From: an uncultured Chloroflexia bacterium
GTDB taxonomy: Bacteria; Chloroflexota; Dehalococcoidia; GIF9; UBA5629
DNA: 64,000 nt
Direction of reading: 5' to 3'
Assembly (NCBI GenBank): GCA_963820495.1
Contig: CAWGAF010000002.1
Coordinates: forward strand, 121,913 to 185,912
Under the pieces are notes generated by a model. That model was not told where the DNA came from. It saw only the letters and a program-made list of their open reading frames with translations, and made no database searches. This document shows positions 4,203 to 48,710 of this stretch, piece by piece; positions within the stretch are counted from its first letter, which is position 1; each line of letters begins with the position of its first letter. The position numbers and the translations under genes are program-made.

Positions 4203-5311
4203 GAGGCACTTTACTGTTACTTTCTATTGCGTTGATTTTAGGAGCCTTTGCAGCGCTGCTTGGCCAAACGGCAGATGTTGGTGGGGTAGGCGCACCGACG
4301 GATAATTCTACAATACCAAATTCCCCTGCTATTGACCAATCTCAGGATGAAATCAAGCCGTCGGTGAACTATGTCCTGCGAGGGCCTACGTCACAGTCCA
4401 AAAGTACACCGCCCAATTTCATCCCCAGTTTCATAGCGACATCGGAACAGGACAAATTCAAGGTCACTGCAAATGAAACCTGGTATCTGGACGTGGACAT
4501 CAATACGCCCGGATGGCTTTATATTTATGAATATTTTCCCGGGGGAGAGGACTTCCAGGGAAAATGGATAGCCTATAAATGGCAATTGCTGCAAAGCGGC
4601 CTCTGGAAGCTTGGCCCGTTCACTCCCGAGAATAATGAACCAGAGGGGCAGCATATATACCGGATTTGGTTTTACAGCGATGGTCAGTGGGCTGAGGAAG
4701 ACCCCAATGCCACGCAGAATAATCTTGTTTTCTGGACATATTCCAAAGGCCAGATTGCTGAGCAACCTGCAGAGCAAGTACCGCCACAACCACTGGTAGC
4801 CCCTGTAAAAGAAACCACGTTGCTTGACCAGTTGCACGGACTTATCACCCCACCGATGGTGCTGTGGTTCGGTCCCTTGGCCTTTATTGTCATCGTCATG
4901 CTCGGCCTTTATCTGTTTTGGAGGTATGCTAGGCGGGCTAGAAGTCAGGAGCCAGTATCACTGCCTGATGAGTCAGAGTTTGAAGTACCATCCGCGGTAT
5001 TACCATCAGTCGCACTCAGTGCCAAAATAGCGCTACCCAACGGTTTGGAGATCCAGATCGCCGGCAAAAGCAGAGTGATAGGGCGAGTTGAACTCGCCAG
5101 GGCGCTTGGCTTGGATGAACTGGGGCTCATCTCGAGACGACACTTCGAAGTTAGGTCGGAATGCGAGCAGTTCTACATTGAGGACCTGGGCAGCGCTAAC
5201 GGCACCAGACTCAACGGTGCAGATATCAAAGGCAAAGGGCCAGTCAGCCTAAATAACGATGACGTCATAGAACCGGCCGGCGCAATAAGTCTAAAGTTTT
5301 ATGTTCCTTGA
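4199..5311 (+). CDS. single-pass membrane protein, secreted ectodomain + cytoplasmic C-terminal FHA domain
   Basis: 370 aa; GTG start overlaps the kinase stop (GTGA). Contains a signal peptide, an ectodomain with the PGWLYIYEYFP...GLWKLGPF motif, a TM helix (LAFIVIVMLGLYLFW), then FHA motifs (IGR...SRRHFEV...GSANGTRLNG). Confidence 0.8.
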   Translation: MRGTLLLLSIALILGAFAALLGQTADVGGVGAPTDNSTIPNSPAIDQSQDEIKPSVNYVLRGPTSQSKSTPPNFIPSFIATSEQDKFKVTANETWYLDVDINTPGWLYIYEYFPGGEDFQGKWIAYKWQLLQSGLWKLGPFTPENNEPEGQHIYRIWFYSDGQWAEEDPNATQNNLVFWTYSKGQIAEQPAEQVPPQPLVAPVKETTLLDQLHGLITPPMVLWFGPLAFIVIVMLGLYLFWRYARRARSQEPVSLPDESEFEVPSAVLPSVALSAKIALPNGLEIQIAGKSRVIGRVELARALGLDELGLISRRHFEVRSECEQFYIEDLGSANGTRLNGADIKGKGPVSLNNDDVIEPAGAISLKFYVP

Positions 5312-5482
5312 CCCTGTAAAGGTCAATCAGAGATTAACCCCATCAAACTATTCCGTCCACCATCTTCCTTTTTGTCAGGAAACTGTCAGTTAACTGTCAG
5401 ACTGTGGTCAAGCAGTCCACTTCCGGCACGTGTATATTTAACCTTGATAAGGAAATATTATATTTGGGAGTTGACAGTCATA

Positions 5483-7039
5483 ATGAAGAAGATTTTAGTG
5501 GCGATTCTTATTATTATCTTGGTCCAATCAGTCGCTATTATTGCAATCTCACCTGTCTATGCCCAGGACTACCCGCTTCCGCCGTTAAGCCCTGATGTAT
5601 CATGGCAACCTCCGTATCAAGGAGGGCAGTTTATGGAGCCCCAGGTGGGCGTAGAAACGTACAGCCAAACTTGGTCTAACCTACAAATTTCGCCGCCGTT
5701 GGCCGTTGCACCGGGAACCCCGAGCTCTATAGTAAATGCTTACCTTGTCAATAGCTACGGACAGATCCTGACCGACCTGTATCGTAACGGGATATGTTAT
5801 CTAATTGTGTCTTTTAACGGTCCGGGCTATTTCTATCTATGGGAATATTACCCTTCTGGCACCACATCTTACGGACACTGGCTTTGTTACCGATGGTACC
5901 GCCCATACGCTGGCGTCTGGAGGGTCGGGCCATTCGCTGCTGAGTCCTTTGACCCTGCTGGCAGGCATATCTGGAAGATGTGGTTCCTTTCTGGGTACTC
6001 CTGGTCAACTCGGTTACTGAGTTTTAATTTCACCAGGAGCTATTATCCGCCAGACATACCAGGCCTGACACCTGGGCTTATTCATTCACCAGTGATTAAC
6101 TCATTCAGTGCCAACAAATCTTCTGTCGAGGCAGGGGAGACAGCAATCCTGACCTGGACAACCACATATGCTGACAGCGTGACTATATCGCCGGGTGTTG
6201 GAACAGTCGCTGCCTCTGGCTCCACGTCAGTCACTCCAGCTTCCACAATCAGTTATACATTGGTGGCGAGGGGTAAATCGGGCAACCCCGCATCATCGAC
6301 TGCAACCATAACGGTTATACCTAGGCTTCCACCCAATATCAGCATCGGCCAAGCCACAATACAGAGCGGGCAGTCAACATCCCTATCCTGGAATGCCCCC
6401 GGAGCGATCCAGGTATCAATAACGGATGTTGGCAATGTCGGTAACAGTGGGACTACGCAGGTATCGCCGGATAACACAACTACTTACACACTTGCCGCTA
6501 CTTATATTGATGGTACTGCGCAGTCTACATCCGTAACAGTTAACGTAGAGCGGCCGCCATATTTGCTCTGGGGCATTATAACTTTATTGGCAGCAGCAGT
6601 CGTTGTGATAGTTATCTTACTTGTCAGGAGATCTGCGGCAGTCCCCCGGGCACAGGCGGCAGATACACAAGGAGCTTACACGCCAGAGTCAAAAGCAACA
6701 CTTTCCACTGATACATTGCCGGCCACCACGCCGGTAGAGGAGGTTGCCGCGGCTAAGCTTGCCATGCCAGATGGGAACGAGATACTACTGGCAGGCAATG
6801 CCAGGTCTTTCGGTCGGCATGACTTTGAAGAATTCATGCTGCGTGATCAAGTCTCTTATATATCTAGGCAGCACATCAACATCTGGCACGAAAGCGGTCA
6901 CTACTACATTGAGGATCGCAGCAGCACCAACGGCACCAAGATCAATGGTACAAATATCAAGGGAACCGGCCGGCATGCACTTGATGACGGCGATGTAATT
7001 GAGCTTGCAGGCAAATTGAGCATCACTTTTAAAAAATAA
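5483..7039 (+). CDS. single-pass membrane protein, paralogous ectodomain + two Ig-like repeats + cytoplasmic C-terminal FHA domain
   Basis: The track ORF begins at 5372, but the signal peptide MKKILVAILIIILVQSVAIIA starts at ATG 5483. The ectodomain motif PGYFYLWEYYP...GVWRVGPF is paralogous to 4199-5311. Then come two repeats of ~85 aa, a TM helix (IITLLAAAVVVIVILLV) and FHA motifs (FGR...SRQHINI...SSTNGTKINGT). Confidence 0.8.
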   Translation: MKKILVAILIIILVQSVAIIAISPVYAQDYPLPPLSPDVSWQPPYQGGQFMEPQVGVETYSQTWSNLQISPPLAVAPGTPSSIVNAYLVNSYGQILTDLYRNGICYLIVSFNGPGYFYLWEYYPSGTTSYGHWLCYRWYRPYAGVWRVGPFAAESFDPAGRHIWKMWFLSGYSWSTRLLSFNFTRSYYPPDIPGLTPGLIHSPVINSFSANKSSVEAGETAILTWTTTYADSVTISPGVGTVAASGSTSVTPASTISYTLVARGKSGNPASSTATITVIPRLPPNISIGQATIQSGQSTSLSWNAPGAIQVSITDVGNVGNSGTTQVSPDNTTTYTLAATYIDGTAQSTSVTVNVERPPYLLWGIITLLAAAVVVIVILLVRRSAAVPRAQAADTQGAYTPESKATLSTDTLPATTPVEEVAAAKLAMPDGNEILLAGNARSFGRHDFEEFMLRDQVSYISRQHINIWHESGHYYIEDRSSTNGTKINGTNIKGTGRHALDDGDVIELAGKLSITFKK

Positions 7040-7057
7040 ATATAAATAGGAGGTACA

Positions 7058-8377
7058 ATGAATTTCAGAAAGGCAATCCTAATCTTGGCAGTAGCATTAT
7101 TAATATGCTCTGCGACATTATTACAGGTCACACCGACATTCGCTGCAGCGGTCGTGGCGAGCGAACATGGGGTGTCATTGCAGGACCTTCCACCGCCACC
7201 TCCACCTCCACCACCACCACCTCCACCTCCACCACCTCCTCCACCTCCACCTCCACCTCCACCTCCACCTCCACCTCCACCTCCGCCTCCACCTCCACCT
7301 CCGCCTCCACCTCCACCTCCACCTCCACCTCCACCTCCGCCTCCACCTCCACCTCCACCTCCGCCTCCACCTCCGCCTCCACCTCCACCTCCACCTCCAC
7401 CTCCACCTCCACCTCCTGCACCGCCGAGGTGGTACCTTCCTAGTTATCTAGGTCCATGGCCTTATACTTGGAGGTTGCCAAATTACATATGGCCAAACGT
7501 GGTAATAATTGAGCAACCTCAAAAGCAGCCTGTCTATGCGCCGGTAGTTAACTCGTTTACCGCTAATCCGGGTTATATTCATTCGTATGAGACAGTTGTA
7601 TTAACGTGGACCGTGAGTAATGCAGATACAGTTACCTTATCCCCTGGGATTGGTTCAGTTCCCAATTCCGGCTCATACAATGTGAGCCCTGGTTATACAA
7701 CTACCTATACTCTTTCTGCTACTAATAACGCCGGCAGTGTCAGCGCCAGCACCACTGTGACGGTTGTTCCATACGCTTCCGCTTTAAACACCAGCATAGG
7801 CACCCAAGTCATAAGCGATGGGAGCGTTGTCAATGCTGGTGCCAGCGACATCGTGCCCCTCGGGTTCGGGGGTGGCGATGGACCGTTTAATTCATGGCCG
7901 CCGTATGTCCTGTTGATTGGCTTGCTGGTTATAGCGGGCGCGGTTATAGCAGTTTTTCTGGTCAAAAAACCCGCTGTAGCCCATGCAGGACGCCGTGCCA
8001 GCGCGCCTGCAGGATACCTGGCTTGGGCTACCGATACACCAGTTGCAACTAGAACTCCACAAACCACGCCCATTGATGCCGGGACTTCAGCGAAGTTCGT
8101 AACGCCGGATGGGGGGCACATATCCGCATCAGGAAATGTCGAATCTCTGGGAAGGAATGATTTCCAATCTTTTGTGATGCCAGACGAAATCAGCCTGATT
8201 TCCAGGGAGCACATACGAGTCGAATGCGAAAATGGCAAGTACTACATAGAGGACCGTAATAGCACTAATGGCACTAGGATTAACGGGTCTAGAATCACTG
8301 GCAAAGGCAGGTTCTTATTGAGGGATGGTGATGTGATCGAGCTTGCTGATGTACTTACCATTATCTTCAAGGCTTAA
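7058..8377 (+). CDS. single-pass membrane protein with 76-residue polyproline tract, Ig-like repeat and cytoplasmic C-terminal FHA domain
   Basis: 439 aa, AGGAGG SD. Order of elements: signal peptide (TFA/AAV), polyPro tract, a repeat similar to those of 5483-7039 (VVNSFTANP...TYTLSATN), a TM helix (VLLIGLLVIAGAVIAVFLV), then FHA motifs (LGR...SREHIRV...NSTNGTRINGS). Confidence 0.8.
   Translation: MNFRKAILILAVALLICSATLLQVTPTFAAAVVASEHGVSLQDLPPPPPPPPPPPPPPPPPPPPPPPPPPPPPPPPPPPPPPPPPPPPPPPPPPPPPPPPPPPPPPPPPPPPPPPPPPPPAPPRWYLPSYLGPWPYTWRLPNYIWPNVVIIEQPQKQPVYAPVVNSFTANPGYIHSYETVVLTWTVSNADTVTLSPGIGSVPNSGSYNVSPGYTTTYTLSATNNAGSVSASTTVTVVPYASALNTSIGTQVISDGSVVNAGASDIVPLGFGGGDGPFNSWPPYVLLIGLLVIAGAVIAVFLVKKPAVAHAGRRASAPAGYLAWATDTPVATRTPQTTPIDAGTSAKFVTPDGGHISASGNVESLGRNDFQSFVMPDEISLISREHIRVECENGKYYIEDRNSTNGTRINGSRITGKGRFLLRDGDVIELADVLTIIFKA
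7190..7417 (+). repeat. imperfect hexanucleotide repeat (CCACCT / CCGCCT)n encoding 76 consecutive Pro codons
   Basis: Read codon by codon in the frame of CDS 7058-8377, every codon from 7190 to 7417 is CCN. It is followed by GCA CCG CCG. Confidence 0.95.
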
Positions 8378-42353: not shown

Positions 42354-43397
42354 TTATTGTTCTTCACCGCAAACCCCGGCTAAAAGATAACTTAGTACGT
42401 CGGACATATAGCCCACAGTGGAAATAGCTCTGCGGTAATCCATGCGAGTAGGGCCGATAACACCAACTGCGCCTCTGACCTTTTGGGGTATACCATATCG
42501 ACTTAGCACTAAACTTAAGTCTTTAAGCGATTCGTCGTGACTTTCCTCACCGATGACGACTTGTACTCGCTCATTTTCTAACTGCTTGTGTAGCACTGAC
42601 TTGAGCCAGTCTTTAGCTTCCATTAATTCCATCATTCTGAGCATTCTGTCTTTACCAATGAACTCAGGTTGTCCCAGCATCAGGCGTAATCCTTCAATGT
42701 AAGTTGCATGATATTCAAGCTCGTCTTCTGTAGCCATCATATCAGCTATAGCTTCGGTTATCCTCTGTTCTTCAGAAGTTGATGTAAGTTTCTTAGTTGA
42801 TACTTGGGCACTGCTCAAACCGGCATAGTTGGCGTTTAGCTTATTAGCGATACTGGTTAGTTGTTCCTGAGTTATCGGTTGGCTAAATGGTAGAAGTTGC
42901 TGTTTGAGCACCGTTTCGCTCAGTACCAGAATTAGCAAAGCTAGGAATTCGTGTAATGATACTAGCTCCAGGTGTTTAAATCGGCATTGATTTGCCTTGG
43001 GAAAAGTAACTACAGCAGCATTGCCAACAAGGCGGGCCATCAGTGCTGCTGCTAGCTTAAGCCATCTTTCGACTTCTTCTTCTACATTATGAAATGAGTC
43101 ACGAATGCGGTATTGCTCCTCCATAGGAAGCTCAATGTCTTTGGATATTGACTCGACATGGTGACGATAGCCCTTAGCTAGAGGTACACTACCGGCAGAG
43201 GTATGTGGCTTGGTGATATAGCCTTCTTTTTCCAAATATGCCATATCATTGCGGATAGTTGCTGAACTTATACCGAGTTTATAATTACGGAGGATAGTCT
43301 CTGAAGCAACAGGCAATGCCGTAGCTATATACTCAGCTACTATTATATTGAGAATAGATTTTCTTCTTGGAGTAAAACCACTTGCCAATTTTAGCAC
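42354..43397 (-). CDS. hrcA: heat-inducible transcription repressor HrcA
   Basis: 347 aa: wHTH N-terminus (RKSILNIIVAEYIATALPVAS), GAVGVIGPTRMDY. The track GTG start (43397) lies inside CIRCE. TTG at 43388 has GGAGAG 8 nt upstream and may be the real start. Confidence 0.9.
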   Translation of the reverse strand: MLKLASGFTPRRKSILNIIVAEYIATALPVASETILRNYKLGISSATIRNDMAYLEKEGYITKPHTSAGSVPLAKGYRHHVESISKDIELPMEEQYRIRDSFHNVEEEVERWLKLAAALMARLVGNAAVVTFPKANQCRFKHLELVSLHEFLALLILVLSETVLKQQLLPFSQPITQEQLTSIANKLNANYAGLSSAQVSTKKLTSTSEEQRITEAIADMMATEDELEYHATYIEGLRLMLGQPEFIGKDRMLRMMELMEAKDWLKSVLHKQLENERVQVVIGEESHDESLKDLSLVLSRYGIPQKVRGAVGVIGPTRMDYRRAISTVGYMSDVLSYLLAGVCGEEQ

Positions 43398-43417
43398 TCT
43401 CCGCTTGTGACTGCTAA
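43391..43417 (-). promoter_or_regulatory. CIRCE operator (HrcA binding site)
   Basis: TTAGCACTC-N9-GACTGCTAA matches the consensus TTAGCACTC-N9-GAGTGCTAA at 17/18 positions. It sits directly between the promoter and the hrcA start. Confidence 0.9.
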
Positions 43418-43427
43418 TTTATTATTT

Positions 43428-43456
43428 ATTATAATGTAATGCCTAGGGTATGACAA
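43428..43456 (-). promoter_or_regulatory. sigma70-type promoter of hrcA-grpE-dnaK
   Basis: The minus strand reads TTGTCA-17 nt-TATAAT (-35 at 43456-43451, -10 at 43433-43428), 10 nt upstream of CIRCE. Confidence 0.7.
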
Positions 43457-43464
43457 GTCAGAAC

Positions 43465-43494
43465 ATAAAAGGCGACTTCGAAGTCGCCTTTTAT
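43465..43494. repeat. perfect 30-nt palindrome ATAAAAGGCGACTTC/GAAGTCGCCTTTTAT (bidirectional terminator-like; resembles IS termini)
   Basis: Read directly from the sequence. The core GGCGACT...AGTCGCC equals the outermost 7 nt of both inverted repeats of the neighbouring IS1595-family element. Confidence 0.8.
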
Positions 43495-43672
43495 CTGGTT
43501 CGTTATTAAAATAAGGCGACTATACCGCCATAACAGGTATAGTCTCAAAATATCCCTCCACAAGATTACTTCAAATTAATAATACTTCAAGGGAACTTAA
43601 CTGTGCAAAAACCAACACTATATGTCGTTCTTTTGGTATTATGGATTGGGGTAATTTTGTTAGGAGGTTTTT

Positions 43673-44173
43673 ATGCCAAAATTCTCTTGGGGCAAAGTTA
43701 AGGACACGATGGGTGGAATTGGGAATAAAATTGCGAAAATGCTGGAATTATTTATCAGGGAAATCAAAGAATGGGGAATATATGTCAAGTCAAGGGGCTA
43801 TATACTCCTACGGCGTTTTTGGTATATTCTGTCAATCACGTCAGTTGCTGCATTCATTATTACTATCGTTTTTCCTTTGTTCAACATTATTCCTACGGAG
43901 ACATTACAGGCAATGAACATTATTGTTATTTTAATGCTGGCGTTAGTTCTTGGTATCCCCATTTTGAGTTTACTGGTTTACTCGTTTTCATATCGTGGCA
44001 GAAAAGTTTTTGATGAAATAATCCATTATCAAGACCAATTAGCACTAGACAAGTTTAGAGGAAAAATGATGGATGATATGAAAATAATCAAATCTAAGTT
44101 GGAAAACATTGAGAATAAACTAGACAATCATGAAGATAGATTACAGAAAATCGAAAATATTATAGACAAGTAA
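43673..44173 (+). CDS. passenger gene 1: two-TM membrane protein with C-terminal coiled coil
   Basis: 166 aa, TAGGAGGT SD. TM helices SITSVAAFIITIVFPLF and IIVILMLALVLGIPILSLLVY. The tail KLENIENKLDNHEDRLQKIENIIDK has heptad-like repeats. Confidence 0.65.
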   Translation: MPKFSWGKVKDTMGGIGNKIAKMLELFIREIKEWGIYVKSRGYILLRRFWYILSITSVAAFIITIVFPLFNIIPTETLQAMNIIVILMLALVLGIPILSLLVYSFSYRGRKVFDEIIHYQDQLALDKFRGKMMDDMKIIKSKLENIENKLDNHEDRLQKIENIIDK

Positions 44174-44174
44174 A

Positions 44175-44720
44175 ATGAATACTATTACAATAGCAACAAG
44201 AAAACCGTTTTTACATAGGACAAAGCCAATGGATGTATTATGGGGAGCTTGGGTAAAGGAACTCAGAGATAACCCTAGTGACCTACGTGCCTTCGACGTA
44301 ATTGGTATTTATGACACCATTCACAAAAAAGGAAAGCCCGATTTCCCTTTTACAACTGATTTACAAATTGTCCTAGCTTATAGGGTGACGGATAGTTCAG
44401 AATTTGGTCAAATATATCAACTTACTTTCGATTTCAGAGACCAGTTCGGAGTTAATCAAATTTTCAAAATGAACGACCAGATTATTGCTTACGAAGGCGA
44501 TATTCCTGTTCAATTATACGAAACATATGAATTTAAGAATGTTACGATAAAAGAGCCAGACTTCTATAAGCTAAGTGTTTTACTTGATGGACACTTTATA
44601 CTATATATTCCTTTACGGATTAATGCACCCAAAATGGTGATTGTTGAAGATGCAGAGAGACAGATTACAACAGAATTATGGCCTGAAGATTATGATGAGT
44701 ACAAGAAAAAGGGGAAATAA
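44175..44720 (+). CDS. passenger gene 2: soluble hypothetical protein
   Basis: 181 aa; starts 1 nt after the gene 1 stop; beta-rich; no family recognised. Confidence 0.6.
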   Translation: MNTITIATRKPFLHRTKPMDVLWGAWVKELRDNPSDLRAFDVIGIYDTIHKKGKPDFPFTTDLQIVLAYRVTDSSEFGQIYQLTFDFRDQFGVNQIFKMNDQIIAYEGDIPVQLYETYEFKNVTIKEPDFYKLSVLLDGHFILYIPLRINAPKMVIVEDAERQITTELWPEDYDEYKKKGK

Positions 44721-44723
44721 GTT

Positions 44724-44963
44724 ATGTTCAAAAAGAGGGTAACTCAATTTACAATAAAGCAAAGAGCTGGCGAATCGCCGGATATATTAGTCACTAGAAC
44801 GCAGTATATACCTATTCCTCTTAAGCATTCAAAGACAAAGGGGAAAAACAAGCCTATTGACTACGGTATTACAGAGGAACAATTCGATACTATTCTAAAA
44901 AAGGCAGCACAACCAACTAAAAAGCTTAAAACTGATTTGGAAAAATTAGATAAGGGTAGTTGA
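44724..44963 (+). CDS. passenger gene 3: small basic hypothetical protein
   Basis: 79 aa, AAGGGGA SD, Lys-rich. Confidence 0.55.
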   Translation: MFKKRVTQFTIKQRAGESPDILVTRTQYIPIPLKHSKTKGKNKPIDYGITEEQFDTILKKAAQPTKKLKTDLEKLDKGS

Positions 44964-44964
44964 A

Positions 44965-45285
44965 GTGAGAATCTTTGGCTGGTTATTACTTTTCATTGGG
45001 TTGGTTTCACTTTGGTTGTTATGGCCTTACATAGTTGGATTTTCTGGGCTCACTATTCCTACTGTTACAACTGATAACGGGGTTATGAGGTATGTACCCG
45101 GGGCAATTGTACAGTATAAAATACCTTTTTGGATGATTTTGCCACCATGTTTGTGTATTGGATTTGGAATTTGGTTAGGAGTTCGCAAACGCCAAAAACC
45201 AAAATATACTGTTTGCCCCCATTGTCATTCGCCAATCAGTTTGGAACAGAGGTTTTGTATTAACTGTGGGAGTAAATTAGATTGA
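44965..45285 (+). CDS. passenger gene 4: two-TM membrane protein with C-terminal zinc ribbon
   Basis: 106 aa; GTG start 1 nt after the gene 3 stop; CPHCHSPISLEQRFCINCGSKL. Confidence 0.6.
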   Translation: MRIFGWLLLFIGLVSLWLLWPYIVGFSGLTIPTVTTDNGVMRYVPGAIVQYKIPFWMILPPCLCIGFGIWLGVRKRQKPKYTVCPHCHSPISLEQRFCINCGSKLD

Positions 45286-45288
45286 GAA

Positions 45289-46137
45289 TTAAATCTGATT
45301 CAGAAAAAGCTCGAACATTGACCTTTCATCAAAACGATGGTTATAACGGAATGCATACTCATTCAAATAAGATTGTAAGTATTTAGGTGAAACAGAATGA
45401 TAAACGCCATTGATACCACGTTTAATTTGAGACCAGAAACCCTCGATATTGTTGACGTGGGCTTTACCACGGACGTATTGCTTGGCTCTGTGATTGATTC
45501 TTTGATGATTAAATCCGATATAAGTAAGATGGTCGTAAGTAGGGAATTCATCAGTATAAATGATGGTATTCTTGGATATATTCCTGTTAATCATAGGGGT
45601 TATCGTAGACCGTTTAGCATCGGGGACAACGGAAGCCATGACTTTGCCTTTTCTTTGGACAAGGCCGACTACAACGGTTTTACCCTGTGCCCCACGACCA
45701 CGTGTGCCATGACGAGCACCGCCGACGTAGGTTTCGTCAATTTCAACTTCGCCAGTAAATATAGAGGATTCTTCACTAAGAAGTGTTCTAATCTGTTTAA
45801 ACATTCTCCAAGCAGTTTTATACGTAACGCCTGTCTCTCTTTGAATCTGTTTAGCAGAAATACCGCATCGAGTAGAAGCCATACGATGTATAACTTCAAA
45901 CCAAGTTCTAAGTGGAGTAGCGGACTTATGAAAAATTGTGCCAGCAGTCGGGTAAACTTGGTGATTGCAGTAATCGCAATTATAGCAATGGCGATTAGCA
46001 ATTTTATGATGTTTGGTTACTCGCTGGCAGTTCGGACAATAAATCCCGTCTGGATAGCGTTGATTCTTAATCCATTCAAGGCAAGTATCGTCATCTGGAA
46101 ACTTTGCGTCAAAATCATTTGTCGTAAACTTTTGCAT
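45289..46137 (-). CDS. IS1595-family DDE transposase with N-terminal zinc-ribbon
   Basis: 282 aa: CPNCQRVTKHHKI...YNCDYCNHQV ribbon, EIDETYVGG, IIYTDEFPTYD, VNNIEGFWSQIKR. Confidence 0.88.
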   Translation of the reverse strand: MQKFTTNDFDAKFPDDDTCLEWIKNQRYPDGIYCPNCQRVTKHHKIANRHCYNCDYCNHQVYPTAGTIFHKSATPLRTWFEVIHRMASTRCGISAKQIQRETGVTYKTAWRMFKQIRTLLSEESSIFTGEVEIDETYVGGARHGTRGRGAQGKTVVVGLVQRKGKVMASVVPDAKRSTITPMINRNISKNTIIYTDEFPTYDHLTYIGFNHQRINHRAKQYVRGKAHVNNIEGFWSQIKRGINGVYHSVSPKYLQSYLNEYAFRYNHRFDERSMFELFLNQI

Positions 46138-46160
46138 TTCTCTATCCCCCTTACACAGGT

Positions 46161-46189
46161 ATTATATCATAAAACTTACCTGTTGTCAA
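46161..46189 (-). promoter_or_regulatory. consensus sigma70 promoter for the transposase inside the right IS end
   Basis: The minus strand reads TTGACA-17 nt-TATAAT (-35 at 46189-46184, -10 at 46166-46161), followed by the AAGGGGGA SD and ATG 46137. Confidence 0.65.
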
Positions 46190-46213
46190 GGGATAGTCGC
46201 CTAAAATAAAATA

Positions 46214-47383
46214 CTATTTCTCAGTATAAGTAACTTCTAGTTTAACTTCTGACCACTCAATCCATTCAGCTTTATTGTTAGCATTGTATGGTTTCATAAA
46301 CAAGGCTTCTGCCTGAAAGCGGGTGGCGGCTCCATCAGCAAGTTGGCCCACCTCTGGAGTCACATCTAGCACAGTCGGCGGTTCATAAGAGCTCATAATT
46401 GCTTTCTGAAGTTGGCCGCCTGTTATGGTGAAATCAGGAAGTCTATCGACATAGCGTACCGTCCATAATTTTAGTCCACCAAGTGATTCAGCTCCGGTCT
46501 CAAGAAAAGGATTGCCGGATATAGACCTTGTAGTGAATATCAACTTGGCATCTTTCACCTCGGTTCCATTGAGGCTCCATATGTTAAAGCTCCAAAAGGC
46601 GCGGTAACCGACATTCTTCTCATCATCGCCAGCTCTAGTTCTAGAGTTGTCCTTGTCACCTTTTGAGTCTACAGTGCCTGTTTCTTCTTGGACTACATTA
46701 ATAGTAACAGTCTTAGTTGCTGTAGCTACGGTAACGACAACATTACCTTGAGTCTCTCCGCCTTTGCCATCGCTGACTAGGACTGTAATATTGAATGTAC
46801 CACCTTTGTTGGGGGGAAACCAGGTAACTTGATTACCTACGCCTGTAATGTTACCATCAGTGACTTTCCAGCTATACTTAATTGCATCGCCATCAGGGTC
46901 GCTAGCGACGCAAGTTATCAGAGAACTGCCACCGGGACCTATAACGGATGGATTAGCAGAGACGGATACTTGTGGATTATTATTAGCCCCAACGCTTAGG
47001 TCTAATGACTTTTGTGTAGAAGCGCCTTTGCCATCGTCTACTGTGGCTGTAATAGTATATGTCCCATATTGCTCGGGAGCTTGCCAGGTAACTATATGAC
47101 TAGTACCGCTGAAGTTGCCTCCAGTAGCTGACCAGGTGAAATTCAATTTGTCGTCATTCGGATCTGAGGCAATGCACTGAATTTCAACCGTGCCTGAAGG
47201 ATAAATTTGTGTCTGTGCTGGAGTCAGGCTTGAGATAACTGGAGGCTGGTTGCCAGTAGGAGCGGGAGACGGTGTTGGTGCTGGAGGTGCTTGACTGGGA
47301 CCGCATGCGCTGCCTAATGCGATTACTGCAATCAGTATCAGAAAAATAATGGCAAATTTTACTATTGGACTACTCTTATTCAT
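46214..47383 (-). CDS. secreted/lipoprotein with two PKD/Ig-like repeats and an uncharacterised C-terminal domain
   Basis: Preferred start is MNKSSPIVKF... (ATG 47383, AAAGGGGA SD); the track start is 47398. Signal peptide ends ...ALGSAC. Two ~90-aa repeats (IQCIASDPNDDKLNFTWSATGG; ITCVASDPDGDAIKYSWKVTDG). Confidence 0.75.
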   Translation of the reverse strand: MNKSSPIVKFAIIFLILIAVIALGSACGPSQAPPAPTPSPAPTGNQPPVISSLTPAQTQIYPSGTVEIQCIASDPNDDKLNFTWSATGGNFSGTSHIVTWQAPEQYGTYTITATVDDGKGASTQKSLDLSVGANNNPQVSVSANPSVIGPGGSSLITCVASDPDGDAIKYSWKVTDGNITGVGNQVTWFPPNKGGTFNITVLVSDGKGGETQGNVVVTVATATKTVTINVVQEETGTVDSKGDKDNSRTRAGDDEKNVGYRAFWSFNIWSLNGTEVKDAKLIFTTRSISGNPFLETGAESLGGLKLWTVRYVDRLPDFTITGGQLQKAIMSSYEPPTVLDVTPEVGQLADGAATRFQAEALFMKPYNANNKAEWIEWSEVKLEVTYTEK

Positions 47384-47570
47384 ACTATCCCCTTTCATAT
47401 GTATTTATATTTAATTTAAATGGAGCAATATATGACTAGGTAACTTTTGGATAAAGTATAGCATACTTGCTTGAGTTGTTGATATAATTTAGTGCTGGAG
47501 TTTTTATTACAGGGTGACTCTTTATTATGCGAAATTGAGCGCGACTATAATAGACGTATATTAAGGCTAG

Positions 47571-48010: not shown

Positions 48011-48415
48011 TTATTTCCTGGAGCAGCTTTTACAACCCTGTTTTTGGTTTTCATTTACAACTACACCAATAGTTAGAGTAGCTTGCGAACTGCTGCCTTT
48101 GCTATCCTCAACAATGACCATAATATGGAAATCACCATAGGCATTTGGTGCTTTCCAGGTGACAATAGGTCCTGTTCCAATAAATGTACCATCGGTACAT
48201 GACCATTTGAAGGTCATGTTATCGCCGTCTGGATCAGTAGCAATACACTGGAGCTCTGCCTTTCCCGTAGGGTAAACAAGCATGGTATCGGCTTCCAGAC
48301 TTGAGATTTTAGGTGGCTGGTTAACCGATATGCTACATGCGTTAGCAAGCGATGAAATGATAATCAGTATGATTAACATAATGCCGAACTTTGCTCTGTA
48401 AAGATAAGGTTTCAC
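48011..48415 (-). CDS. lipoprotein with one PKD/Ig-like repeat (paralogous to repeats of 46214-47383)
   Basis: The track ORF runs to 48502. GTG 48415 gives a typical signal peptide MKPYLYRAKFGIMLIILIIISSLANAC. Repeat: LQCIATDPDGDNMTFKWSCTDG. The start is uncertain (ATG 48379 is also possible). Confidence 0.65.
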   Translation of the reverse strand: MKPYLYRAKFGIMLIILIIISSLANACSISVNQPPKISSLEADTMLVYPTGKAELQCIATDPDGDNMTFKWSCTDGTFIGTGPIVTWKAPNAYGDFHIMVIVEDSKGSSSQATLTIGVVVNENQKQGCKSCSRK

Positions 48416-48710
48416 GGATGTACTCTTTGTATTTTTAAACTCAATAGAGTATATACAGGACTGATGGTTTTGACAAATTGTCAATTTGAGATTGGTTGTC
48501 AAACTTTCACTCCTTGAGACCGCTAAGTTTACAACTGCAAAGACTGAGGCATGATTGCTGAAAAATAATTGGCTATTGGTTTTTGACCTGTGTCTATTGT
48601 TGACTCATGCCTTTTGTCTAATGACAAGCCATGAGCTACTAGAAATTTTGTTTGACCTTAGTTGAATGACGGTGATATTATGCGTTAAATATTCCTGCGG
48701 AGGTCTCCCG

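Follow-up and report, generated by a model that had tools for sequence, protein, structure and literature searches.

The window analysed here, a 64,000-nt stretch of contig CAWGAF010000002.1 from an uncultured Chloroflexia bacterium, contains an insertion sequence (IS) of the IS1595 family that carries, in addition to its transposase gene, a cassette of four genes, here called P1 to P4. The initial annotation had singled out this cassette as the best candidate for an undescribed system, and it proved to be the most unusual item in the region. The two middle genes, P2 and P3, form a conserved pair that we found inside insertion sequences of two unrelated transposase families. The four open reading frames (ORFs) lie on the forward strand and encode proteins of 166 (P1, 43673-44173), 181 (P2, 44175-44720), 79 (P3, 44724-44963) and 106 amino acids (P4, 44965-45285, with a GTG start). 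As first described, they are co-directional and tightly packed, with intergenic gaps of 1, 3 and 1 nt, and the stop of P4 is located 3 nt from the stop of the convergent transposase gene. P1 is preceded by the Shine-Dalgarno sequence AGGAGG (43662-43667, forward strand), 5 nt before its ATG at 43673. The extended -10 element proposed for the cassette (TGGTATTAT, 43634-43642, forward strand) is likewise present and plausible as the cassette promoter, but it was not listed by the consensus promoter scan because it has no -35 box. The spacing of 1-3 nt behind a single Shine-Dalgarno sequence and this candidate promoter argues for one operon. No terminator was found between the cassette and the transposase gene (tnp), and in three related loci (L005, L015 and L045) the last cassette gene and tnp share 25-31 nt at their 3' ends. 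The substitution ratios of the P2, P3 and P4 homologues, together with 14 P1 relatives sharing a common motif (both described below), indicate that the cassette ORFs are real and not due to chance.

The element extends from 43514 to 46202 (2,689 bp) and is bounded by 26-nt imperfect inverted repeats, the longest inverted repeat of the region. The left terminal inverted repeat (IRL, AGGCGACTATACCGCCATAACAGGTA, 43514-43539, forward strand) pairs with the right one (IRR, 46177-46202, reverse strand) at 81% over 26 nt, and the DNA homology between the window element and its relatives ends at 46204-46210, that is, at the right repeat. Immediately beyond each arm stands the hexamer AAAATA, a perfect direct repeat of 6 bp, read from the sequence at 43508-43513 and, identically, at 46203-46208. 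The reverse-strand tnp gene (45289-46137) encodes an IS1595-family DDE transposase of 282 amino acids with an N-terminal zinc ribbon, identified by matches to Pfam DDE_Tnp_IS1595 (PF12762, E = 3.4e-46) and Zn_ribbon_IS1595 (PF12760, E = 4.8e-8) and to NCBIfam transpos_IS1595 (NF033547, 222.7 bits at a cut-off of 75). The transposase promoter predicted by the scan (46161-46189, reverse strand) consists of TTGACA, a 17-nt spacer and a TG-extended TATAAT, with 12/12 consensus matches, and its -35 box is located inside the IRR. The G+C content is 0.33-0.38 within the element and 0.42-0.50 outside. The four genes are thus passengers of an IS1595-type transposon, as had been proposed, lying inside its inverted repeats and flanked by its 6-bp duplication.

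Homologous repeats (AGGYRACTAT...ACARGTA) enclose a cassette and a transposase in five further independent elements, and a perfect 6-bp target duplication flanks all six independent IS1595-type elements, that of the window included (AACTTT in L001, AATATA in L002, TAAAAT in L005, AATTTT in L012 and TAATCT in L015). The L005 element was found again in L007 at a different site. The L012 relative, an element of ~3.8 kb (about 4443-8282), is inserted within xdhC, where it splits the XdhC_C and XdhC_CoxI ORFs; an Eco57I/MmeI-like restriction-modification gene is located near it. The related elements occupy unrelated genomic contexts. The repeats, the 6-bp duplications, the two-site L005/L007 element and the split xdhC show that 43514-46202 is an intact, bona fide transporter IS of the IS1595 family that has recently been active in its relatives. 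A search of the window for further copies of the element or its repeats found none, so that it is present as a single copy, and an Rfam scan of 43300-46400 gave nothing above threshold.

In order to compare the cassettes, profile hidden Markov models (HMMs) of P1-P4 and of both transposase types described below were run over every ORF of the related loci L001-L040 and of the window. The loci were gathered by looking up exact proteins and by scanning GTDB genomes and metagenomes; every relative derives from a metagenome or a metagenome-assembled genome (MAG), with L008 labelled as a 'Chloroflexia' MAG and L009 as a Dehalococcoidia MAG, and many of the contigs are short. At the DNA level the window element and its relatives align in two blocks, one covering P2 and P3 (44162-44916) and the other the transposase and IRR (45288-46204). 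A DDE transposase was identified within ~2 kb in 19 of the 24 distinct P2 loci, 11 of them of IS1595 type and eight of IS6 type (DDE_Tnp_IS240), and in the remaining five the contig ends at most 0.7 kb from P2. The transposase is downstream and convergent in the 11 IS1595-type loci, and also in the IS6-type loci L029-L032, whereas it is upstream and co-directional in the IS6-type loci L003, L009, L026 and L040. In the IS6-type elements P2, with or without P3, lies inside IS6-like GGTTCTG repeats, found at 14-37 and 2719-2742 in L003, where the start of P2 overlaps the transposase stop. P3 follows P2 in 11/11 IS1595-type and in 5/8 IS6-type loci; the IS6-type L029 and L030 lack it, and the contig of L040 is truncated. 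The P2-P3 pair was thus found only inside insertion sequences, belonging to two unrelated DDE families, in Chloroflexota-type metagenomes, a result that applies to the sample reached by homology searches relying on shared words or patterns, with distant DUF6941 members (the Pfam family of P2, see below) in other contexts lying outside it. P2 gave no match in annotated plasmids, in phages or in IMG/VR. The initial annotation treated the four genes as a unit that might travel with IS1595 elements; this was observed for P2 and P3, which also travel with IS6-type elements, but P1 does not co-occur with the pair and P4 does so only in patches.

Several loci depart from this general arrangement. L010 contains a second, divergent P2-P3 pair (39% and 59% identity), which appears to be located elsewhere in the genome of the window and is preceded by a 150-aa zinc-ribbon protein with two transmembrane (TM) segments. 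In L030 (4940-9802), perfect 26-nt repeats of the form GGTTCTGCTAAGTTGAGG..., 4.9 kb apart, bound an IS6-type transporter IS of 4.9 kb carrying P2 without P3; its cargo includes a DUF433 protein (E = 1.7e-13) and a sub-threshold DUF5615/PIN-like protein, which together have the appearance of a toxin-antitoxin-like pair. IS1595 elements lacking P2 are present in L041 (900-3600) and L045 (2600-4450), where they carry a two-TM coiled-coil protein, a helix-only P3-like gene and a two-TM zinc-ribbon protein of 88-94 aa. A CAP-domain protein is also aboard the L041 element, which is adjoined by a type III CRISPR-Cas locus (Cas6, RAMP, Cas02710). Finally, L036 (603-1985) and L024 (2-1552) are short contigs with P2 homologues and no visible transposase; one of these homologues is located beside a sub-cut-off phage-integrase N-terminal fragment and a one-TM protein, the other after an ORC/CDC6-like ATPase, and they may represent P2 in other kinds of mobile elements. 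An apparently 'minimal' element consisting of P2, P3 and the transposase (L015-L018) was discarded when the location of its IRL showed three more genes inside, two of them encoding TM proteins.

The ratios of nonsynonymous to synonymous substitution rates (dN/dS) were 0.14-0.27 for P2, 0.05-0.19 for P3, 0.42 for P4 and 0.04-0.08 for the transposase, all of them rough values as dS is near saturation. Judged from these ratios, P2 and P3 are a conserved pair under purifying selection, retained across a transposase divergence of 61-92% identity, and selection on P4 is more relaxed. In a neighbour-joining tree (no bootstrap), IS6-linked and IS1595-linked P2 sequences are interleaved. Together with a marked contrast between L001 and L002, to which we return below, the tree indicates that the P2-P3 module has been exchanged among elements and between the two transposase families.

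None of the four proteins had been recognized in the initial annotation, and no known function can be attached to them; P2, however, belongs to a catalogued though uncharacterised family, Pfam DUF6941 (PF22091), which it matches with 39.1 bits at a gathering cut-off of 27 (E = 1.1e-9, profile positions 17-124 of 125). Most of its homologues bear a precomputed DUF6941 annotation, and a full-text literature search found no mention of the family. Beyond DUF6941, P2 has a strand conserved at its N-terminus (MDVLWGAW) and the segment ELWPED at its C-terminus. An AlphaFold2 model based on a 32-sequence alignment predicts an all-beta, immunoglobulin-like (Ig-like) sandwich with a predicted local distance difference test score (pLDDT) of 88.4 and a predicted TM-score (pTM) of 0.78. 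Foldseek matches of the model in the PDB included UNC119/RhoGDI, the Wzt carbohydrate-binding domain, the AlkC Ig-like domain and GH2 domains, with TM-scores of 0.35-0.46; a specific fold assignment was dropped, as these reflect a generic Ig-like sandwich only, and a PDB profile search with P2 gave nothing. The best Foldseek matches in BFVD were uncharacterised phage proteins, among them a protein of Anoxybacillus phage A403 with a target-normalised TM-score of 0.80 (E = 1e-7), and 4/32 P2 homologues matched phrog_5881, whose function is not known. P2 is acidic (isoelectric point, pI, of 5.3), and its conserved residues are aromatic or acidic (W23, W26, D41, D56, E76, D89, E116 and W169), with no conserved His, Cys or Ser in the alignment; with such a composition P2 looks like a binding module rather than an enzyme. 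Some gene callers place the start of P2 at Met19 (44229), which may be the true start. The preceding 18-residue extension, MNTITIATRK... (44175-44228), is unstructured in the model, and its MNTxTI N-terminus is conserved in many homologues spanning 38-78% identity; this conservation may reflect a signal for translation or one acting at the level of DNA or RNA.

P3 is the basic member of the pair (pI 9.95, with 18 Lys and Arg in 79 residues) and belongs to a family of 48 members. The AlphaFold2 model consists of a beta-hairpin (residues 2-11 and 21-30), a disordered Lys-rich linker and a helix (51-61), with a pTM of 0.34 indicating that P3 is not a self-contained globular fold. The best-conserved part is the helix, DYGITEEQFDTILKKAAQP, with the motif DYG[IV]TxxQFxxILDKASQP. 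The two ends of the protein behave differently among the elements. In the IS6-linked P3 proteins the hairpin is kept and the helix is absent in 3/4, whereas the P2-less IS1595 elements (L041-44 and L045-47) have, just before the convergent transposase, a P3-like gene whose 61-63-aa product keeps the helix motif and has a basic segment in place of the hairpin. In addition, among 11 full elements, hairpin identity correlates with that of P2 (r = 0.55) more than with that of the transposase (0.30), and helix identity with that of the transposase (r = 0.62) more than with that of P2 (0.47). This pattern agrees with a bipartite adaptor whose hairpin binds P2 and whose helix binds a partner specific to IS1595 elements. 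A weak similarity of P3 to HicA in a PDB profile search (E = 0.064) was rejected as a sign of a HicA-like toxin: the catalytic His is absent (GSH replaced by ESP), there is no Pfam match, the model is non-globular and Foldseek returned no HicA match.

Considerable turnover was observed in the rest of the cargo, where hardly any two elements have the same genes between IRL and P2 and between P3 and tnp. At least one small TM protein is nevertheless encoded beside P2-P3, or beside the P3-like gene, in 13/13 IS1595-type elements with visible cargo, and no TM cargo was found in the IS6-type elements. Usually directly upstream of P2, the IS1595-type elements encode a two-TM protein with a helical or coiled-coil tail, represented by P1 in the window and by proteins of 122 aa in L001, 138 aa in L005, 147 aa in L034, 124 aa in L037, 166 aa in L015 and 140 aa in L025. 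Most of them also encode a zinc-ribbon protein, mostly membrane-anchored, represented by P4 and by proteins of 141 aa in L002, 150 aa in L010, 149 aa in L012, 150 aa in L019, 88 aa in L041 and 94 aa in L045; in L001, L034 and L037 soluble CxxC proteins take the place of the zinc-ribbon membrane protein. The combination of a membrane pair, a soluble protein and a small basic protein, on which the initial annotation had built its interpretation, therefore recurs as an architecture in the IS1595 branch, although the sequences that fill it are evolutionarily fluid.

The descriptions first given of the individual proteins agree with our analyses throughout, from the all-beta P2 and Lys-rich P3 described above to the two membrane proteins. 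In P1, TM segments called with a Kyte-Doolittle hydropathy window lie at about 48-76 and 82-107 and are followed by a heptad-like, putatively cytoplasmic coiled-coil tail. Among 1.84 billion representative proteins we found 14 weak, distant relatives of P1, which share the juxtamembrane motif S-x4-GRK-x-FD. The P1 HMM matched only the window among the loci searched, and P1 does not significantly resemble the membrane proteins that related elements carry, those of L041 and L045 among them. From its sequence, P1 is best regarded as the occupant of a variable slot of the element, an analogue of the proteins upstream of P2 elsewhere and not a conserved member. P4 has two hydrophobic segments and, as judged from hydropathy and Pfam, a cytoplasmic C-terminal zinc ribbon (CPHC...CINC) that matches Pfam Zn_Ribbon_1 over residues 84-105 (32.2 bits, cut-off 25, E = 8.7e-8). 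It has one clear homologue, in L002 (E = 3e-31), and weak full-length or zinc-ribbon similarity to the two-TM zinc-ribbon proteins of L041, L045 and L010, and would accordingly be classed as a semi-conserved slot of the element. Set against some 25 related elements, the cassette is not a single fixed system of four genes: the absence of co-occurrence that had been named as evidence against such a system is found for P1, and largely for P4, but not for the P2-P3 pair.

The element is flanked by the promoter and CIRCE region of hrcA on its left and by a gene for a PKD/Big_9 lipoprotein on its right. The insertion point is located ~60 bp upstream of a near-consensus promoter (TTGTCA-17-TATAAT, reverse strand, 43456-43428) for the hrcA-grpE-dnaK operon, and a CIRCE-like operator, TTAGCACTC-N9-GACTGCTAA, overlaps the hrcA start (window 43389-43456). 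Between these and the element, 20 bp left of IRL, is a perfect palindrome of 15+15 nt (ATAAAAGGCGACTTC/GAAGTCGCCTTTTAT, 43465-43494), hairpin-like with T-rich flanks, whose stem has AGGCGACT in common with the IS terminus; it may act as a terminator in both directions, mark a favoured insertion target or be left over from an IS end. In the palindrome region the only Rfam matches, to small RNAs, fell below threshold (STnc50, 30.7 bits at a cut-off of 55). To the right of the element, two lipoprotein-like proteins with PKD/Big_9 Ig domains are encoded on the reverse strand (46214-47398 and 48011-48502) and have a conserved N-terminal PKD-type module in common.

The usual picture of an insertion sequence is that of two repeats enclosing a transposase gene and, now and then, a random passenger. 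The P2-P3 pair has been kept by purifying selection across a deep IS1595 lineage, has been swapped with an unrelated IS6 lineage and was not seen away from a transposase, a pattern which argues that it is a functional partner of the element and not a hitchhiker. The explanation we favour, tentatively and as something short of probable, is that P2 and P3 serve the element by way of a complex, bridged by P3, which would modulate or direct transposition at the membrane. P2 and P3 would then act for the element itself and not for the host. The N-terminal hairpin of P3 would dock on P2 and its C-terminal helix on a conserved partner, most likely the IS1595 transposase, while the Lys-rich linker may touch DNA. 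P1 and P4 would anchor the assembly at the cytoplasmic face of the membrane, and the complex as a whole would tune or direct transposition. As cassette transcription would run head-on into tnp, with no terminator in between, it would in addition be expected to dampen transposase expression through antisense or collision effects.

A number of observations weigh against this explanation. The divergence of P2 (33-80% identity) far outpaces that of the transposase (61-92%), the co-divergence of the two is weak (r = 0.30), and between L001 and L002 the transposase dN is 0.037 whereas that of P2 is 0.376. The shuffling of the module argues against a tight, specific protein-protein partnership. The covariation of the hairpin and helix of P3 may be explained by linkage alone, since the hairpin is coded beside P2 and the helix beside tnp. 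The partner of the helix is also ambiguous, because the helix co-occurs not only with the IS1595 transposase but also with the membrane proteins, which every IS1595-type element has and the IS6-type elements lack. Membrane proteins are, moreover, an odd requirement for transposition, and the P2-like fold is found in proteins of phages, which need no transposition cofactor. To our knowledge, neither biochemistry nor structural work offers a precedent for a transposition factor composed of a beta-sandwich protein and a small basic one.

The association of the pair with membrane proteins is open to a second explanation, namely an addiction module of the toxin-antitoxin kind, in which one or both of P1 and P4, or of their analogues, would be toxic when unopposed and would be neutralised by P2-P3, so that loss or decay of the element would be counter-selected in the small genomes concerned. 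The regular presence of a small TM protein beside P2-P3 or the P3-like gene would be expected from such an arrangement, as would the fact that the TM proteins are fast-evolving or replaced while the soluble pair is conserved; the DUF433 and PIN-like pair in the IS6-type L030 suggests that this group of elements picks up addiction-type cargo. P4 itself weakly resembles the membrane toxin Cpta_toxin (E = 0.018), but this match is below the cut-off and driven by the TM segments. Known toxin and antitoxin families gave no significant match to any component, and the similarity of P3 to HicA did not hold up. Furthermore, the IS6-type elements carry P2, with or without P3, in the absence of any membrane protein, implying that the role of the pair is independent of a membrane toxin. 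We consider an addiction module unlikely, though still a live alternative.

Equally unlikely, in our judgement, is a function that benefits the host through exclusion or abortive infection, in which P2, P3 and the zinc ribbon would sense an invader and the two-TM coiled-coil protein would oligomerise and damage the membrane. The architecture of P1, two TM helices and a helical tail, resembles that of SieB- and SLATT-type effectors, and P1 gave a single modest match to the PADLOC model RTasSLATT (E = 2e-5, 22.4 bits). However, none of the 14 P1 relatives gave this match, which thus stands in 1/15 family members, no Pfam SLATT family was matched and Saf_2TM reached only E = 0.2; a SLATT partner such as SMODS, a reverse transcriptase or another nucleotide-signalling enzyme is absent, the neighbours of P1 being P2, P3, P4 and the transposase. 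P1 was for these reasons rejected as a SLATT effector. Pfam SieB was matched at 2e-4 by 2/15 members of the P1 family, but the SieB, PspB and XhlA matches of this family are all below the cut-off and typical of a TM and coiled-coil composition. The rapid evolution of P2 and of the membrane slots is reminiscent of an arms race, and the fold of P2 in uncharacterised phage proteins, along with the phrog_5881 matches, could point the same way. PADLOC v2, PHROGs and NCBIfam scans nevertheless gave nothing significant for P2, P3 and P4 (the best PADLOC match being LmuB for P4, E = 0.17), and PADLOC likewise gave nothing significant for nine proteins that related elements encode as cargo or for the P2 homologue of L009. 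Some of the elements adjoin restriction-modification, CRISPR-Cas or phage-like genes, although insertion beside defence loci is to be expected of any mobile element, and, unlike known defence systems, the conserved pair was not seen outside insertion sequences. The initial annotation, in which the cassette was read speculatively as an abortive-infection or toxin-antitoxin-like system, finds no support on this point: PADLOC, the unreproduced SLATT match and the failed HicA similarity all leave it unsubstantiated. A mobile element carrying small membrane proteins is a pattern insufficient for calling a defence system, and homology gives defence no support here. Very improbable is the absence of any joint function, with four independent hitchhikers of a promiscuous transporter IS and only P2-P3 linked by chance: P1 is unique to the window element, P4 is patchy, the flanking gene content differs from element to element and other cargo includes a CAP-domain protein and a toxin-antitoxin-like pair, but the two-TM protein with a tail upstream of P2 and the zinc-ribbon protein recur in most elements despite their sequence turnover, and the genes in the window, 1-3 nt apart behind one Shine-Dalgarno sequence and one candidate promoter, point to a single operon.

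In a broader sense, P2-P3 and their membrane coiled-coil and zinc-ribbon partners might constitute an unrecognised class of IS-encoded accessory machinery, exchanged between IS1595 and IS6 elements; we regard this as conceivable but rather doubtful. Such machinery might couple transposition to the membrane, for instance through the capture of incoming DNA, by which the element could hop onto mobile vectors, or alternatively enforce retention of the element. If the pair controls transposition, target choice or retention, IS accessory systems would gain a new type, and Pfam DUF6941, whose fold occurs in phage proteins as well, its first function.

Compared with known systems, the element shares with other transporter ISs of the IS1595 family a lone DDE_Tnp_IS1595 transposase that bears a zinc ribbon at its N-terminus, short inverted repeats, extra genes within these repeats and an AT-rich target duplication. 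Work by Siguier and colleagues from 2009 and 2015 is said to describe passenger-carrying IS1595 groups, namely ISPna2+, ISNwi1+ and ISNha5 of ISfinder. The target duplication of the family is usually 8 bp, in contrast to the 6 bp found here in 6/6 elements, and the present elements also differ in having a gene pair conserved clade-wide instead of sporadic passengers. Among the IS1595 transposases of 72,556 plasmid records, none exceeds 41% identity to that of the window. The nearest annotated IS1595 relative, located on a Geminicoccaceae plasmid (41% identity), has convergent hypothetical genes, which were found to be unrelated to P2 and P3. P2-P3 as a cargo pair was not described in the full-text literature searched or in two IS6 reviews (PMC7986276, PMC6807381). 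These reviews report one IS6-family member with a hypothetical passenger gene, ISDsp3 from Dehalococcoides sp. BAV1 (PMC7986276, PMC6807381), of 1,456 bp and with a 319-aa transposase (PMC6807381). With its IS6-type transposase and its passenger in a Dehalococcoidia host, ISDsp3 is broadly of one kind with L003, L009, L026 and L030, which have GGTTCTG-type ends; it was rejected as the identity of the IS6-type elements, as 1,456 bp is too short for P2 and P3 and the elements found here measure 2.7-4.9 kb.

Other comparisons concern the manner of working or the architecture only. P1 has in common with SLATT, SieB, PspB/PspC and XhlA a pair of TM helices and, after them, a helical or coiled-coil segment in the cytoplasm, but differs in that its matches are below the cut-off or unreproduced and that no nucleotide cyclase, reverse transcriptase or PspA partner accompanies it. 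IS21 IstB, IS66 TnpA/TnpB and IS605 TnpB are, like P2-P3, non-transposase genes that persist in a lineage beside the transposase, and IstB and TnpB proved to be functional partners of their insertion sequences. There is no relation in sequence or fold, the Ig-like sandwich of P2 having no ATPase or nuclease motifs, and the P2-P3 module differs further in spanning two transposase families and in coming with membrane proteins. Passenger-carrying IS1595 elements are themselves of an already known kind; the features that appear to be new are the conserved P2-P3 pair itself, its confinement to insertion sequences, its occurrence with two transposase families and a target duplication of 6 bp.

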